A DNA stretch of 64,000 nucleotides, from the sequence record OR352956.1. One strand, given 5' to 3'. Position numbers and translations under genes: made by a program. Origin of the DNA: Escherichia phage AV126. The notes beneath the pieces are model-generated. The model searched no databases. It was given only the letters and a program-made list of their open reading frames with translations, and was not told where the DNA came from. Each line of letters opens with the position of its first letter. The stretch's first letter is position 1. Below are positions 14,356 to 28,529 of this stretch, one piece after another.

Positions 14356-14714
14356 TTGACGTTCAAATTATGCGCAACGAAAGAATGGACTTCTTTGAAG
14401 CAGTAGAGAAACATCTGATCCGATGGGACTATGAATTTGTTCCTGCTGGATGTGGACCAGTAGAGCATTTAGCGGAAGACGACGATGTATACATGATCAT
14501 TCGTCAAGTGTACCAGACAGACCAGTGTGAAGAAACTCCCGAACTGATTTTGTTTGAGTGTAAAGATCTTGCAAAATATTTTGACTATGGCGGAAAAGAG
14601 GGTCATAATCTCTCCAGATACAATAAACGTCTACTTATCTTAGACTACATGCGGAACAACAAACACAAACTCATCGACGCAGACGCAGTTTATGGCTACT
14701 GGTGGATGGACTAA
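14349..14714 (+). CDS. hypothetical protein (121 aa)
   Basis: ORF with GAGGAGG SD. Confidence 0.5.
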   Translation: MLVDVQIMRNERMDFFEAVEKHLIRWDYEFVPAGCGPVEHLAEDDDVYMIIRQVYQTDQCEETPELILFECKDLAKYFDYGGKEGHNLSRYNKRLLILDYMRNNKHKLIDADAVYGYWWMD

Positions 14715-14727
14715 CAAAGGAGAAACT

Positions 14728-14907
14728 ATGGCACGTTTAGCAGATCATGAAATCTTTAAACCTATTCTGAACCACTATGATGAACTTAAAGCAGTGTTGG
14801 ATTGTTATAGAGAGGATGAAGAACGTTTGGAAGTCAATCTTAAGATAGTTCTGATGAAAGCTTTTCAAGACGGGCAAGCTAAAGTTTTAGAAGGCATGAA
14901 AAAATGA
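14728..14907 (+). CDS. hypothetical protein (59 aa)
   Basis: ATG at 14728 after AAGGAGAAA. Confidence 0.45.
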   Translation: MARLADHEIFKPILNHYDELKAVLDCYREDEERLEVNLKIVLMKAFQDGQAKVLEGMKK

Positions 14908-15446
14908 GAATAACTGATGAATATGTATTCTTCTTTTCACATAAAGATGTGTTTAGTAATTGGTATATTGCACCCTTTACAGAAACTGAACTAGGTTACA
15001 ATGAGACTTTCTGTTGTGTTGAGCAATATATGATGTGGCGTAAGGCTTTGCTGTTCAAGGATCATGCGATTGCAGCAGCTATCCTTGATCACTCAACTAT
15101 ACGTGACAACGAGAGGAAACAAGCATACTACAAACGTATGGGTCGAGCGGTATCTGGTTTTAATAATGATATGTGGGAAGAGAACCGTGAGCGTATTGTT
15201 ATGCGAGGCTTATGCTTGAAATATGTACAGAATCCAGATTTGTATGCAGACTTACACCTTTACCAATACAAAACGTTTGTTGAAGCAAGCCCCTACGATA
15301 AGGTTTACGGAATTGGAATGGGGATGTATGAACCAGGGGTGCTAAACCCTGCTACCTGGAAAGGGCAGAATCTTTTAGGCAAATATCATAATAAACTGAT
15401 CGAAATACTTTTCCCAGACAAAATACCGCAAAGACGATATTTGTGA
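14904..15446 (+). CDS. NADAR-domain protein (YbiA/DUF1768-like, 180 aa)
   Basis: FFFSHKDVFSNWY..., CVEQYMMWRKALLF, RMGRAV and C-terminal EASPYDKVYGIGMG match the NADAR pattern. Confidence 0.7.
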   Translation: MRITDEYVFFFSHKDVFSNWYIAPFTETELGYNETFCCVEQYMMWRKALLFKDHAIAAAILDHSTIRDNERKQAYYKRMGRAVSGFNNDMWEENRERIVMRGLCLKYVQNPDLYADLHLYQYKTFVEASPYDKVYGIGMGMYEPGVLNPATWKGQNLLGKYHNKLIEILFPDKIPQRRYL

Positions 15447-15501
15447 TATTTTAACTTTTTTCATTTTTAGAACAAAGGTGTCACTTTGTAGCACAGAAAT
15501 A

Positions 15502-15537
15502 AGGCTCCTACAGCACCGTAGAGAGCCTGTTATTTTG
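15502..15537 (+). terminator. rho-independent terminator candidate
   Basis: AGGCTCCTACAGCACCGTAGAGAGCCT hairpin followed by GTTATTTTG, downstream of NADAR gene. Confidence 0.55.
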
Positions 15538-15670
15538 TCCTATACAAACCCTTGTCTTTTTCAGTTTGCATCACTAGGATTCGATCTGAGTGGGTTCCTG
15601 AAGGTCTGCCAATAAGATTAAAGGTTATCTCAAATTCCCACTACCTATTATCTCAAAAATCCCTCAAATT

Positions 15671-15737
15671 ATTTAAACTTTTTAAGAATTTACAAAAGTG
15701 AAAGTTGAAAACCAAAATTTAAAGTTTAGGAAAAATT
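15671..15737. repeat. ~67-bp AT-rich direct repeat, copy 1
   Basis: ATTTAAACTTTTTAAGAATTTACAAAAGTGAAAGTTGAAAACCAAAATTTAAAGTTTAGGAAAAATT; about 80% identical to copy at 15809-15875. Confidence 0.7.
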
Positions 15738-15808
15738 ATCTTAGAATGTTAGATACAAACAAAACTCAAAAGTCAAGGAAAATTTTAAAAATTTTGCGCG
15801 CCCACAGT

Positions 15809-15875
15809 ATTTAAAGTTTTTTTGCTTTTACAAAAATGAAAGTACAAAAGCAAAATTTAAAGTTTACAAAAATTT
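15809..15875. repeat. ~67-bp AT-rich direct repeat, copy 2
   Basis: ATTTAAAGTTTTTTTGCTTTTACAAAAATGAAAGTACAAAAGCAAAATTTAAAGTTTACAAAAATTT. Confidence 0.7.
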
Positions 15876-15908
15876 ATGCAGGTGGGAATGAGAAGAGTTC
15901 TCATGTGG

Positions 15909-15935
15909 AAATGCAAATGATAATGATTCGCATTT
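15909..15935. promoter_or_regulatory. Fur-box-like palindromic operator
   Basis: AAATGCAAATGATAATGATTCGCATTT; core TGATAATgATTcgCA matches the 7-1-7 Fur consensus TGATAATnATTATCA at 12/14. Confidence 0.45.
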
Positions 15936-15951
15936 AAGTTTATAAACGAGA

Positions 15952-15993
15952 TTGATTCTTATTCAATAAGGTAAATGATAATCATTCTCATTT
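15952..15993 (+). promoter_or_regulatory. sigma70-like promoter overlapped by Fur-box-like operator
   Basis: TTGATT -35, 17-nt spacer, ATGATA/GATAAT -10 region; operator AAATGATAATCATTCTCATTT (13/14 to 7-1-7 Fur consensus) overlaps the -10. Confidence 0.5.
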
Positions 15994-16221
15994 AGAGAAT
16001 GACGCGCAGGGGCGGTGTTTGTCTCGCGCTCCCGTGTCCCCTCGCCATGTAATAAGAATAACAGATCCAACCAGGAAAGCAAGCGATTATTTTATCTTTA
16101 CATTTCTTTACAAATATATAGCGCCCAGCCTACCGGCGATCAACCTTCCAACCAGCGCCCCTGGTATGTTAGCCCCGCCTTTACGCCGTGGGGTGGCGCT
16201 TCCTCTTCTGTATGTAAAACA

Positions 16222-16262
16222 GTATAAGCCCGATCCCTGGGCTTGTCAAGATTATTTTTTGT
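16222..16262. terminator. hairpin plus T-run (possible bidirectional terminator)
   Basis: AAGCCCGATCCCTGGGCTT then GTCAAGATTATTTTTTGTTTTC; just beyond stop of minus ORF 16252..16518; minus sense also reads TTGACA-17-TATACT. Confidence 0.4.
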
Positions 16263-16518
16263 TTTCTTGCCAGGATAGGACACCTAACCAAAAATGCATA
16301 TCGCCCCGCGCCGCTGGCGGGATCTTGCTTTCCCCGCCGCCACTGCAAGCCCATAAATAACCATCAGCAAACGGATCAAAATGTTCTATCTCTTCCACTT
16401 TATGATCGCCCAGGTTGAGAACGGTTTCAACCTTTAAGCCCGTTGCGCTTGCTACCTGGTGCACCGTGCCGCCTTGCCAGCCCAATGAGTGCATAAGGTG
16501 TAATGTAGTATTTGTCAT
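16252..16518 (-). CDS. hypothetical protein (88 aa) in GC-rich island
   Basis: Only minus-strand ORF in the plus-oriented region; GC-rich codon usage unlike flanks; GGCGATACC upstream of ATG. Confidence 0.45.
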   Translation of the reverse strand: MTNTTLHLMHSLGWQGGTVHQVASATGLKVETVLNLGDHKVEEIEHFDPFADGYLWACSGGGESKIPPAARGDMHFWLGVLSWQENKK

Positions 16519-16626
16519 GGTATCGCCCTTTCTTTGATGTGCGCCCTGGTTGGCGCGGTAGAAAGATAATAGCCCTTTTCTTTATATATAGCAAGCAAAA
16601 AGAAAATAAAAAAGATTGAAAAATGG

Positions 16627-16686
16627 TTGACGTTAACCAGGCGGCGGCGTAGTATTCATCTTATAGGGCGGCAATGGTGCCGCTCA
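16627..16686 (+). promoter_or_regulatory. PeSL-like cassette 1
   Basis: TTGACG / TAGTAT / hairpin GGGCGGCAATGGTGCCGCTC; ORF at 16705. Confidence 0.55.
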
Positions 16687-16704
16687 CTATTTGGAGTTAA
16701 GATC

Positions 16705-16902
16705 ATGGCAACATTGCACATTGTGGCGAAAGCTGGACAAATCAACGTAGTGGTAAACGGTTTTACTGAGTTCAGTCACCCCCAGGATGATCATGAAACG
16801 GTTTTATCTTTCATTGATTCCCTGTTAGAAATGGGAGTCATTACAGAAGACCAGCACGCTACAAAATGCAAGCGCGTTAATCAAATTGCAGGAATAGAAT
16901 AA
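16705..16902 (+). CDS. hypothetical small protein (65 aa)
   Basis: ATG at 16705 after GGAG, directly downstream of PeSL-like cassette. Confidence 0.5.
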   Translation: MATLHIVAKAGQINVVVNGFTEFSHPQDDHETVLSFIDSLLEMGVITEDQHATKCKRVNQIAGIE

Positions 16903-16908
16903 AAACTA

Positions 16909-16968
16909 TTGACAACAAACAACAACCTGATAAGATGTATCACATAGGGCGGGAAGTGGTTTCCCGCT
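16909..16968 (+). promoter_or_regulatory. PeSL-like cassette 2
   Basis: TTGACA / TGaTAAGAT / hairpin GGGCGGGAAGTGGTTTCCCGC; ORF at 16993. Confidence 0.65.
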
Positions 16969-16992
16969 CGTAACAGAAGAGAGATTATCATC

Positions 16993-17265
16993 ATGGCATC
17001 ATATAGCGCAACAATGATCGTAGCTGGCACAACTGGTAAACCTATGAGCGGTGGCGGATCTTTCGCTAATATCAATATTGACGGGCGTTTATCCCTGGAC
17101 GCAGCGATCGCTATTGCACGGGAAACATTTAAGAAAGAATGTAATTTCAACAAGCAAGATTATCTCGGTTTCGCTATTGAAAAAACCGCGCGCTTTGTTG
17201 ATTATAAAAGCCCGAAAATGGTTGATACTACACTAAAAGCGCAAGATGTAGCGTTTTTGCTTTAA
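16993..17265 (+). CDS. hypothetical protein (90 aa)
   Basis: Downstream of PeSL-like cassette. Confidence 0.55.
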   Translation: MASYSATMIVAGTTGKPMSGGGSFANINIDGRLSLDAAIAIARETFKKECNFNKQDYLGFAIEKTARFVDYKSPKMVDTTLKAQDVAFLL

Positions 17266-17268
17266 GGC

Positions 17269-17325
17269 TTGACATTAACGAATAATTTGTTAATATGTTA
17301 CATAAAGCGGGAATAGTTCCCGCTA
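17269..17325 (+). promoter_or_regulatory. PeSL-like cassette 3
   Basis: TTGACA / TAATAT / hairpin AGCGGGAATAGTTCCCGCT; ORF at 17342. Confidence 0.65.
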
Positions 17326-17341
17326 TTTGTAAGGTGGTAGA

Positions 17342-17599
17342 ATGTTTTACATCAAATTAAAAGGTCACGTGATCGCGTTCAAAGATAACGCTTTTTACAG
17401 ATTAGCAAAATATGCGTTAATACATCCCCACTATGTTTATATAAGGGGGCGTGATGAAATAAATATCTTTGATCAAACAACATGCGAGAACATCGAGATC
17501 CGCAAGGTTGGCGTACGTGATTATCGTACATCTTTCTACCCTTGCAAGGATTCAGCAAGTCTTTTTAAAGTATGCCAATTGTTGAAAAAAGGTGGTTAA
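17342..17599 (+). CDS. hypothetical protein (85 aa)
   Basis: Downstream of PeSL-like cassette. Confidence 0.55.
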   Translation: MFYIKLKGHVIAFKDNAFYRLAKYALIHPHYVYIRGRDEINIFDQTTCENIEIRKVGVRDYRTSFYPCKDSASLFKVCQLLKKGG

Positions 17600-17600
17600 T

Positions 17601-18158
17601 ATGGGCCGCGAATATGTGATCCAGTCTTGGGTAAAACATGAAGCAGATGATCCGCGCATCATTCCCGATCATCTTATCGATGAATCCACGGGATATAGCG
17701 GTGAGCAAATAGGTAACAGATTAGCACGTAGTAACGGCAACGTAAAAGCGCGTTATGTGCGCCCTGGCTGGCTGGCAAATGGTAACGCTGATTTATCCAG
17801 TGCGGAAGATGCAAGCGACGGCGCGAAAGATAATCCTTTGTACAAAATTGATCCGGCTTTTCGTGTCCTGGATGAATACCCCAGCAAGATAGCGGCGCTT
17901 GATGAAGCATTGGAAAGTAAGCGCATCACCTGGACCGCTTACAACATGGCAAAAAACGTACTTGATGGTAAATTGATTCAAGCTGAAAGAAAATTAGCCA
18001 AAATTGCAGCCATAGCCCAGGAGGAAGACGAGGAGACAACGGAAGAGGAAGAGTACGAAGAGATCCCGCCGTTGTTGTGTATTGATGCTTTTCCTGATTA
18101 TCAGCCGACAGAGGAAGAAAAAAGGATCGCACTAGAAAACTTTGAAAATAGTCTTTGA
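17601..18158 (+). CDS. hypothetical acidic protein (185 aa)
   Basis: ATG at 17601 after AAGGTGG; its TGA stop lies inside the next TTGACA -35. Confidence 0.55.
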   Translation: MGREYVIQSWVKHEADDPRIIPDHLIDESTGYSGEQIGNRLARSNGNVKARYVRPGWLANGNADLSSAEDASDGAKDNPLYKIDPAFRVLDEYPSKIAALDEALESKRITWTAYNMAKNVLDGKLIQAERKLAKIAAIAQEEDEETTEEEEYEEIPPLLCIDAFPDYQPTEEEKRIALENFENSL

Positions 18159-26410: not shown

Positions 26411-26476
26411 GATTATACAAGGGGCGCACTAAGCGCCCTTTAACGTAAAGAAATGTAAATAATGCGCTATCCCCTA

Positions 26477-27012: not shown

Positions 27013-27218
27013 GCCTGAACAATGTTGATAGCTTTCGCCTATGAAAAACCGACACAGAACAAAACTGAATAAATCGCGGTATCGAGCTAATCAACCATCA
27101 AACGAATAACCATACATCCCAGGGCAACAGGCTGTTAGAGAGCTATTTAGAGCGGTTAAAATCGATCTACAACCAACAACAAACCATCAAAAACACCCTT
27201 TTACCTCCTTTCTAGTGC

Positions 27219-27237
27219 AATGATAACCATTATCATC
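27219..27237. promoter_or_regulatory. Fur-box-like palindrome
   Basis: AATGATAACCATTATCATC; 13/14 match to TGATAATnATTATCA. Confidence 0.5.
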
Positions 27238-27580
27238 TACCCATGATTATCTATGCAATATAAGCGCATAATTATAATGTTGATAATAGTTCGCAACAAC
27301 TAACCAACAAACAACATAAAACAATAAGCAAACTAATCATAATCAAAGGAATAATAGCAAGATGATTGATAACGACAAACAATCAAACCATGATGAATAC
27401 TAAGCAAGATAACGATAACACGACAAAACAACCAACTAACGAACAATAACAAACGAAACCATTAAAAGATCAACTATTAGCAAAATAGTGTCTATTGCCA
27501 TAATAGTGACTGAATGAAATCATTACAAAACGAATCATTCCAAGGATCATCATTAGCACGCTACGCCGGACACGTAGCGA

Positions 27581-27708
27581 GCTAATAATAAGCCAACTAC
27601 ACCCCAACAATCATAACCATCGGTGACGGTTATTTCTTGTTACTGCGTAGCTTGCAATAATTGCAAGCGTAATGACGCTTACACTTATTGCGCTGGCTTA
27701 TTATTAGC
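27581..27708. repeat. 14-bp perfect inverted repeat pair flanking ~100 bp rich in palindromes
   Basis: GCTAATAATAAGCC at 27581-27594 and its reverse complement GGCTTATTATTAGC at 27695-27708; internal palindrome CTTGCAATAATTGCAAG (27651-27668); adjacent hairpin GCTACGCCGGACACGTAGC. Confidence 0.55.
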
Positions 27709-27990
27709 ATTATATGTAATTACCAAGATCATAACATTAGCGCAATAACAATAATCATTACAATAATTACATAAGGAAACAATTAGCATAGCAATAATTA
27801 TGGGGGCAATGGGAGGATGATTATCATCATTCCGATACATTGCACACTATGCACATAATAAGATAAAAAGCAATAATCTTGGGGGCGAAATGTTACCGCC
27901 ACAGGCGGGAATGTTGAGCATCTTCTCTTAAACGTAAATAAAATCAGAAAATTCTTGATTTATTTTAGTTTTTATGTTAATAAACGTTTA

Positions 27991-28008
27991 AATAATAATC
28001 ATTCTCAT
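27991..28008. promoter_or_regulatory. Fur-box-like site
   Basis: AATAATAATCATTCTCAT; shares the 14-mer ATAATCATTCTCAT with the site at 15973-15993. Confidence 0.45.
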
Positions 28009-28148
28009 ATAAATAATAGTCTGCTTGTCATGAGCGGGATTAGTTGACATTGTTCCGTCATATGATGAAGTTGCCAAGCCATTGATAAATAAGTGTTTGT
28101 GTGATTTATAATCAAGTGGCCCACCTTGTCGCTACGTTGGCATGAGCC

Positions 28149-28190
28149 TTGCATAAGTCATTGAATACGAATGATAATTATTCTCATTCG
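28149..28190 (+). promoter_or_regulatory. sigma70-like promoter overlapped by Fur-box-like palindrome
   Basis: TTGCAT -35, ~18-nt spacer, GATAAT -10; 21-bp near-palindrome GAATGATAATTATTCTCATTC (13/14 to 7-1-7 Fur consensus) over the -10. Confidence 0.5.
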
Positions 28191-28529
28191 CATGATATTT
28201 GGGAATTGTCGCTGCGTGGACCTGACGGCCCGAAAATTCGCGTTAAGCACTTCTTACGTATGCGCCATGATTTTTGCCATATCATATTGATTCTATTAGA
28301 TATTCTTGCCATGATTGCCATGAAACAGGGTGTCCCGAAATAATCTCTCCCCGTAGATATTTTGGGTTACTTTTTATACAAGAGTGGGGTGTCAAAAATA
28401 ATCGGTATATATGGGATAATTGATAGGAATCCCCTATGATAATTCGATTGTAATTCCCTAAGATTGATCGTATGATGTTGGTGATTGATGATTGCCATGA
28501 AAGATGGCTAACGATGAGAGGAGATTATC

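Follow-up and report, generated by a model that had tools for sequence, protein, structure and literature searches.

A probable minus-strand non-coding RNA with a predicted pseudoknot faces Fur-box-like sequences in Escherichia phage AV126

Here, we propose that the GC-rich segment at positions 15990-16600 of a 64,000-nucleotide (nt) stretch of DNA from Escherichia phage AV126 (sequence record OR352956.1; this whole stretch is the window referred to below) carries a gene for a conserved, structured non-coding RNA that is read leftward. On comparative evidence, 16085-16214 is very probably such a gene on the minus strand. We further propose, with a probability of roughly 0.55, that the GC-rich segment as a whole is a leftward (minus-strand) transcription unit within a rightward early-gene block. 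An initial annotation of this DNA, made from its letters, had also placed a structured non-coding RNA in the segment, and this part of the proposal stands; the strand and the driving promoter that it had named do not, as the RNA appears to lie on the minus strand behind a sigma-70 promoter of its own.

Distribution and strand of the RNA

The core of the RNA (16085..16214, minus strand, predicted start ~16214) is defined by a covariance model, R1, of 23 sequences, whose sole match in the window is 16085-16214 on the minus strand (130.7 bits, E value 1e-26). In related phage loci the model gives 46 matches, one copy per genome, including divergent copies in uncultured viral contigs and in the Aeromonas phages 2L372X, 2L372D, and 4L372D (Plateaulakevirus). 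Over distant genera the block holds 70-84% nucleotide identity, and sensitive blastn finds 16095-16218 at 78-84% in very distant phages of Klebsiella, Proteus, Cronobacter, Pectobacterium, Salmonella, Serratia, and Erwinia, and the feature annotated beneath these matches is mostly “none”. The block at 16085-16214 is conserved in Stephanstirmvirinae, Vequintavirinae, and Aeromonas Plateaulakevirus phages, and roughly 240 sequenced genomes of large virulent phages carry the RNA. No open reading frame (ORF) is conserved on either strand of the core. A scan against Rfam 15, as suggested in the initial annotation, matched no family on either strand at an E value of up to 1 (14500-18000) or up to 10 (15960-16270). 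The RNA is ancestral to several phage groups.

In alignments of 25-30 distinct loci, the RNA is part of a syntenic module. Read along the plus strand, this consists of 1-4 Fur-box-like palindromes, a GC-rich stem-loop (SL1), a short AT-rich stretch, two CTTTAC repeats, the core, a pyrimidine tract, and a final GC hairpin with TATA-like and TTGACA-like minus-strand hexamers on either side. The Fur-box/SL1 part persists without the core in E. coli phage HMD-6 and in Shewanella phage 1/4.

The strand is indicated by three kinds of evidence. Directly upstream of the core lies a candidate promoter (16221..16249, minus strand) made of TTGACA (16249..16244), a 17-nt spacer, and TATACT (16226..16221), an 11/12 match to the sigma-70 consensus. 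A minus-strand sigma-70 promoter with 9-12 of 12 consensus positions and a 17-18-nt spacer is present in 34 of 37 distinct upstream sequences, where its -10 ends 2-6 nt ahead of the first position of the model; two clear exceptions to this position have an extra 5' hairpin and a promoter further upstream. The predicted RNA start near 16214 coincides with the beginning of conservation, and in all lineages A/T make up 13-19 of the 22 nt upstream of the promoter. In the Aeromonas phages, the RNA stands alone in a 310-base-pair (bp) gap, oriented opposite to the neighbouring genes and followed directly by an intrinsic terminator on its own strand, which would make it ~150-170 nt long. Lastly, the G.U versus A.C cells of the helices favour the minus strand by 4 to 1. 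Promoter position, Aeromonas terminator, and wobble cells thus argue that the conserved RNA is a minus-strand transcript.

Towards the 3' side of the core, two CTTTAC repeats 10 nt apart (16096..16111; UGUAAAG twice on the RNA strand) are nearly invariant in alignments A4 and A5, and could belong to the RNA tail or be an upstream element of a second minus-strand promoter. A candidate for the latter was read from the alignment at 16055..16082 (minus strand), with TTGCTT (16082..16077), 16 nt, and TATTCT (16060..16055). It is weak in the window and stronger in relatives (TTGCAA/TTGATC, 16-17 nt, TATATT/TATTAT), with CGCTTG conserved on the minus strand. A 15-mer of the RNA locus, TTTACATTTCTTTAC, recurs at 26445-26459 (minus strand) beside a GC hairpin and the extended -10 TGTATAAT, and may be a shared protein-binding or promoter element.

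In Raoultella phage Ro1, an ORF resembling a homing endonuclease (MKKVYGVGVNDS...YATWRNMLQRCY) is inserted in the RNA gene after GGATCGCTGG (locus L019, 6257-7129), and beside the interrupted gene the phage retains another, divergent RNA copy, which has a promoter of its own. This combination fits a conserved and important target.

Secondary structure and covariation

The initial annotation had recommended folding with covariation across related phages, and the outcome supports a folded RNA, on the minus strand. RNAalifold on plain MAFFT alignments failed on misaligned loops, and re-alignment with a covariance model was used instead. In the resulting alignment, paired cells make up 88.3%, and both sides change in 10 of the 16 pairs. 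These values are reached by 0 of 500 shuffles, and structures slid by 1-3 columns have 21-46% of cells paired. The alignment was fitted to the model for two helices only, H1 and P2. The pseudoknot helix lies outside the model, and because of this its covariation is independent of the alignment method.

The predicted RNA begins with a purine-rich leader, and hairpin H1 (16184..16198, minus strand) is formed by CGCC (16198..16195), the loop ACCCCAC (16194..16188), and GGCG (16187..16184), with 97.6% of cells paired; in the Aeromonas phages the stem is GGAC/GUCU, so that two pairs differ on both sides. Three bases of the H1 loop (16192..16190) can pair with 16173..16175, a partner strand 7 nt downstream, to give a pseudoknot (16173..16192, minus strand). 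This phage has CCC/GGG in the helix; other lineages have CCAA/UUGG, CCAG/CUGG, or CCAU/AUGG, and two show U.G. At pair 26:57, 32 sequences carry C-G and 8 carry A-U, and divergent lineages have A-U, G-C, U-A, or U.G at pair 27:56. At the fourth position, divergent lineages have a standard pair where this phage has an A.G mismatch. With compensatory changes of this kind, the RNA is predicted to contain an H-type pseudoknot.

Hairpin P2 (16149..16168, minus strand) has a stem of 7-8 bp, interrupted by a one-base bulge in a conserved UA step, and 6 of its 8 pairs change on both sides. Its loop is variable, being a GNRA tetraloop (GAAA, GCAA) in two divergent lineages and 4-12 nt in others. P2 is followed by a single-stranded stretch, AAGGUUGAUCGCCGGUAG (16130..16147, minus strand), whose columns are invariant or nearly so in alignments A4 and A5. 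The family consensus of this 18-mer, AAGGUnRAUCGCCGGUAG, is held out to the Aeromonas phages. A basal stem enclosing P2 (GGCG/CGCC), suggested by single-sequence folding, was rejected: 13 A.C cells rule against it, and its 5' partner is lost in divergent lineages although the 3' strand is invariant.

Fur-box-like palindromes and a candidate facing promoter

On the far side of the core from its promoter, four Fur-box-like palindromes with 29-bp spacing (15887..15994; direct-repeat family D1) border the GC-rich segment. The strongest, GTAAATGATAATCATTCTC at 15971-15989, matches the consensus GATAATGATAATCATTATC at 16 of 19 positions, and a second match, at 15913-15931, reaches 14/19. The 15971-15989 sequence is thus a putative Fur box, a 19-bp palindrome close to the consensus that overlaps a promoter-like sequence, and the Fur-box-like sequences reported in the initial annotation are indeed present. 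One to three boxes are kept at the same position in related phages and in Shewanella phage 1/4. One box, TTGAATGAGAATCATTCTCATTT, is identical in Erwinia and Shewanella phages and has no more than one base changed in several further enterobacterial phages. Repression, a roadblock, and titration of Fur are all candidate roles for such boxes in a virulent phage.

The candidate promoter that these boxes overlap (15972..16000, plus strand) was read from alignments, and has a -35 of GTAAAT, an 18-nt spacer, and a -10 of GAGAAT (15995-16000); a consensus scan makes no call for it. Most relatives have TTGAAT-18-CAGAAT/CTGAAT/CGGAAT, with the last Fur box filling the spacer. As this promoter is directed into the RNA gene, it would give a transcript antisense to the RNA. 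Coupling of the RNA to Fur through such an antisense transcript is a tentative idea, to which we give somewhat less than an even chance. In an uncultured lineage (L171, L173), other palindromes, such as TGATAACGTGCGGTATCA, stand in place of the Fur boxes opposite the RNA gene, and it seems that different regulators can serve the facing promoter.

SL1 (16003..16048), a GC-rich stem-loop with the nearly invariant loop GGTG(T/A)TTGTCTC, begins at the expected 5' end of the transcript from the facing promoter; for the minus-strand RNA, it is also the first strong hairpin reached downstream. Its summed folding energies are near equal on the two strands (-329.6 versus -326.7 kcal/mol). The Fur box and SL1 occur as a unit twice in tandem, without the RNA core, in HMD-6 (locus L035, 1180-1480), and the Klebsiella phage BIS47 has an extra copy of a Fur half-box with SL1, 7 kilobases (kb) from its main module (locus L017, 4954-5104). 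This unit is a mobile cassette. Early plus-strand promoters at 16627-16690 (TTGACG-17-TAGTAT) and 16909-16975 (TTGACA-16-TAAGAT) are likewise followed by a GC stem-loop and then a ribosome-binding site, and some annotators have labelled such cassettes terminators. The Fur-overlapped promoter, together with SL1, resembles a regulated form of this standard early promoter cassette of the phage.

Alternative explanations

What else might the segment be? One option, on the lines of the initial annotation, is a plus-strand small RNA of iron starvation: a Fur-repressed promoter would drive a transcript of ~250 nt that starts with SL1 and ends at the hairpin and T-run at 16226-16262. We regard this as unlikely, even though relatives conserve the promoter-like geometry that the Fur boxes overlap, and SL1 stands at the transcript start as stem-loops do at other early plus-strand promoters. 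The conserved block begins exactly at the predicted start of the minus-strand promoter, and the Aeromonas core has a promoter and terminator on the strand opposite to such a transcript. The 4 to 1 excess of minus-strand wobble cells also speaks against it; a single pseudoknot cell, in Hena1, is G.U solely on the plus strand.

The proposed 3' end bears on the same question. A hairpin at 16226-16244 and a T-run at 16253-16262 are both there, as the initial annotation had it, but they do not amount to a conserved plus-strand terminator. An intrinsic terminator on that strand would have a GC stem with a U tract within 0-2 nt, whereas the T-run starts ~7 nt past the stem here and ~12 nt past it in Mydovirus. 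A terminator scan calls the hairpin site on the minus strand only. Among 23 distinct versions of the hairpin, 16 are more stable on the minus strand (mean -10.6 versus -8.8 kcal/mol), and several are fully paired on the minus strand only, by way of G.U pairs. The phAPEC8 lineage, to which this phage belongs, departs from this pattern, its hairpin being more stable on the plus strand (-11.7 versus -8.8 kcal/mol) with the T-run after it, and here the hairpin may have a weak bidirectional role. The hairpin lies within the RNA promoter spacer and immediately follows the stop codon of a reverse-strand gene for an 88-amino-acid (aa) protein (described below). The A/T-rich tract that was taken for the T-run (16250..16271) encodes the C-terminal ENKK and the stop of that protein, and occupies the position expected for an UP element of the minus-strand promoter. 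Hairpin and T-run thus mainly fit a terminator of the 88-aa gene inside the RNA promoter spacer.

A second option, which we consider just as unlikely, is a DNA-level cis site or replication origin, where the minus-strand promoter(s) would send a structured primer or activator transcript into the AT-rich region at 15530-15990, gated by Fur. Directly downstream of the minus-strand transcript there is indeed a 460-bp stretch of 28.7% GC with 75-nt direct repeats. The primary origin of phage T7 similarly has tandem promoters that face an AT-rich region. The two repeats (15665-15739 and 15803-15877) are 81% identical and lie in 26-29% GC among promoter-like hexamers, and relatives show iteron-like GGTCTCGATCG repeats and A6T6 tracts in their place. 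This repeat region could be an origin or another cis site. A repeat search over 15450-16020 found no family apart from the Fur boxes and these 75-mers. As an account of the conserved RNA, however, an origin sits poorly with the Aeromonas phages, where the RNA ends at its terminator in the 310-bp intergenic gap and no AT-rich repeat region is present, and the pairing-preserving covariation, G.U pairs, and GNRA loops point to a folded RNA over duplex DNA.

The initial annotation had also read the segment as a horizontally acquired, possibly host-derived insertion, partly on its composition, put at roughly 55-60% GC. The composition does rise, though to 48.9% (versus 39.2% for the whole window), so that the size of the jump was overstated. 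The segment is nonetheless the GC maximum among all 611-nt windows (standard deviation 2.5%), with a left flank of 28.7% (15530-15989) beside it and an RNA core of 63% (16120-16214) within it. This high GC is accounted for by RNA helices and hairpins. The recommended search of bacterial genomes, run as distant blastn against 5,426 complete E. coli genomes, gave no match. A scan for the 18-position IUPAC-coded motif (15 fixed bases) found 120 bacterial loci, all of which the covariance model rejected; this motif is too loose, giving chance matches in unrelated GC-rich genomes, and says little beyond E. coli. The RNA block is common to, and syntenic across, phage subfamilies, and only the ORF slot beside it varies (an unrelated 61-aa ORF in Mydo, none in CR8). 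A recent acquisition from a host, which the high GC and this variable slot would favour, is therefore very improbable.

Protein-coding potential on the plus strand is the last alternative, and one on which GenBank annotators disagree. phAPEC8-like coliphages (Phapecoctavirus, Stephanstirmvirinae) match 15500-17000 at 96-98% identity. Within 15990-16600, the phAPEC8 record has a 113-aa plus-strand ORF (phAPEC8_00257), the Ro121lw record a 70-aa plus-strand ORF (Ro121lw_00257) and the minus-strand 88-aa ORF, and the ASO2A record the minus-strand ORF only, and several other records are blank. Where the initial annotation saw no plus-strand ORF with a Shine-Dalgarno sequence, two plus-strand ORFs do exist, at 16019-16360 (113 aa) and 16015-16227 (70 aa), but neither frame is conserved in homologues. 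Many homologues of 16015-16227, the close relatives Ro121lw and phi92 among them, have stops in all three plus frames, and length differences and indels are non-multiples of three. The minus frames over this stretch have stops in every frame in every sequence. Thus, although its frames are open in this window and annotated in some records, a plus-strand gene (phAPEC8_00257 or Ro121lw_00257) is hardly credible, with no Pfam or PHROG family matched, lengths out of register, and the stretch left empty by other annotators.

The reverse-strand gene and its surroundings

The leftward unit that we propose also takes in the reverse ORF at 16252..16518 (minus strand), flagged in the initial annotation and borne out here as a genuine conserved protein-coding gene. 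Its substitutions fall at codon positions 1:2:3 in the ratio 59:38:165, gaps in its alignment are multiples of three only, and its 88-aa product has 21 homologue clusters of similar lengths with identity down to 47%. The protein matches phrog_19316, a PHROG family that carries no assigned function, over its full length (E value 1.8e-58). AlphaFold2 models it with confidence as all-helical (mean predicted local distance difference test score 94.4). Pfam, NCBIfam, and the PDB give no relative and no known fold relative was found, nor was there a significant fold or profile match to a known helix-turn-helix family. A candidate promoter for the gene, TTGCTA-17-TATTAT, lies at 16566..16594 (minus strand; 9/12 match), and the phiTE homologue has TTGACT-17-CATAAT at the corresponding position. 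The annotated 143-aa phiTE_079 starts too early; its conserved part runs from MKTNTELL and, once trimmed, it is a ~93-aa member of the 88-aa family (locus L007, 1362-1793).

The 88-aa gene occupies the one slot, between the RNA promoter and the next plus-strand gene, that varies among lineages. The family fills the slot in Phapecoctavirus, phi92, Av-05, A73, and phiTE, unrelated small ORFs do so in Mydovirus (61 aa in Mydo) and Seunavirus, and CR8 has no ORF there.

Two further observations concern the wider window. The upstream gene at 14904-15446 encodes a NADAR-domain protein (Pfam PF08719, E value 3.9e-35), which related records label merely hypothetical or GTP cyclohydrolase II. An ORF-poor region of ~1.4 kb at 27100-28500 holds three more Fur-like boxes (27216, 27988, 28167).

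Proposed mechanism and significance

In light of these features, what might the RNA do? Our best guess is that it is a small RNA that is made early and acts in trans, and that antisense transcription under Fur control ties its level to iron. The host RNA polymerase would make the minus-strand RNA early and abundantly, and the RNA would act in trans through its invariant 18-mer. As the 18-mer is conserved between Aeromonas and Escherichia phages, its partner may be one that these gamma-proteobacterial hosts, or the phages, have in common, and we hold trans action by this route to be possible, at a little under even odds. With iron present, Fur would shut the facing promoter and perhaps also block read-through of the RNA, as a roadblock just beyond SL1. 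With iron scarce, convergent antisense transcription would lower the RNA through interference or duplex formation. This Fur arrangement is proposed for the enterobacterial lineages, this phage included. A bolder version, in which the pseudoknotted RNA forms an undescribed class that targets a universal host machine and has been wired to the iron sensor Fur in enterobacterial lineages, is on the unlikely side; if true, a strictly lytic phage would read host iron status by way of an RNA switch.

Several points weigh against these proposals. The start site, 3' end, and abundance of the RNA are all predictions, the wobble-pair evidence for the strand consists of only five cells, and the enterobacterial lineages have no canonical terminator after the core. 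In the phAPEC8 lineage itself, as noted above, the spacer hairpin favours the plus strand. The degenerate -35 of the Fur-overlapped promoter in this phage (GTAAAT) means that antisense transcription is possibly weak. No recognisable Fur box is found in the flanks read of the Aeromonas copies, and the coupling to Fur would thus be modular rather than intrinsic to the RNA. As to a partner, the 64-kb window has no other complement of at least 11 nt to the invariant 18-mer, and the conserved segments form no better duplexes with 16S and 23S ribosomal RNA (rRNA) of E. coli than shuffled sequences do (z -1.8 to +1.5). On the same rRNA comparison, we gave up a likeness between the plus strand and the 16S 3' end, and complementarity to RyhB, only ~6 nt by eye, was dropped too.

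The RNA is of interest in that virulent phages have few known small RNAs, hardly any of them conserved from one subfamily to another. In the literature, we found no relevant report of Fur boxes or small RNAs in these phages, or of the conserved sequence strings. The carriers include groups of therapeutic interest (phAPEC8, phi92, PVP-SE1), and in the records examined the RNA is left blank or mis-annotated as a hypothetical protein. ORFs of the phAPEC8_00257 type should therefore be dropped from such records and a non-coding RNA feature added. In addition, with its facing array of Fur boxes the locus offers a connection, open to direct test, from host iron status to an early phage transcript.

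Comparison with known systems

The phage phiTE, which carries the RNA, also has a pseudo-ToxI made of tandem 36-nt repeats, its escape locus being several kb from 99,267-99,536 (PMC3475682). Unlike pseudo-ToxI, the present RNA is single-copy, unrelated in sequence, and located at 39.6-39.8 kb in phiTE; by the published coordinates (PMC3475682), the two loci are roughly 60 kb apart and are not the same element. A type III antitoxin-like RNA (ToxI), in which tandem 36-nt repeats are processed into pseudoknots, was likewise rejected, the core being single-copy and the repeat search over 15450-16020 giving only the Fur boxes and the 75-mers.

The setting recalls RyhB (RF00057) in that a Fur box overlaps a promoter beside a non-coding transcript in an enterobacterial context. 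Unlike RyhB, the conserved RNA lies on the strand opposite to the Fur promoter, and this lineage has no canonical U-tail terminator; one follows the core in the Aeromonas phages and none that is canonical does so in enterobacterial lineages. With the RNA having an opposite-strand promoter of its own, and no Rfam match even at an E value of up to 10, a Fur-repressed small RNA of the RyhB type was set aside.

A partial likeness exists to the PeSL promoter-stem-loop cassettes of T4-type phages. Here, too, a GC stem-loop directly follows the early sigma-70 promoters, which flank small early genes, and the cassette recurs at other places in the genome. The likeness is limited to the Fur-overlapped promoter with SL1 and the neighbouring promoters, and excludes the pseudoknotted RNA; moreover, this is a different phage family and Fur boxes are no feature of PeSL.

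A functional analogy exists with convergent-promoter cis-antisense pairs, of which oop/cII of phage lambda and sar of P22 are the type. As in these, two promoters here face each other ~215 bp apart, their transcripts would be fully complementary, and one has repressor operators. Unlike these, the structured RNA is free-standing and is found also without a facing promoter, the regulated partner carries boxes for the host regulator Fur, the phage is virulent, and the pair is a predicted one. By analogy, then, the locus may work like a convergent cis-antisense pair whose partner is gated by a host repressor, and we present its RNA as a new family of a known general kind.

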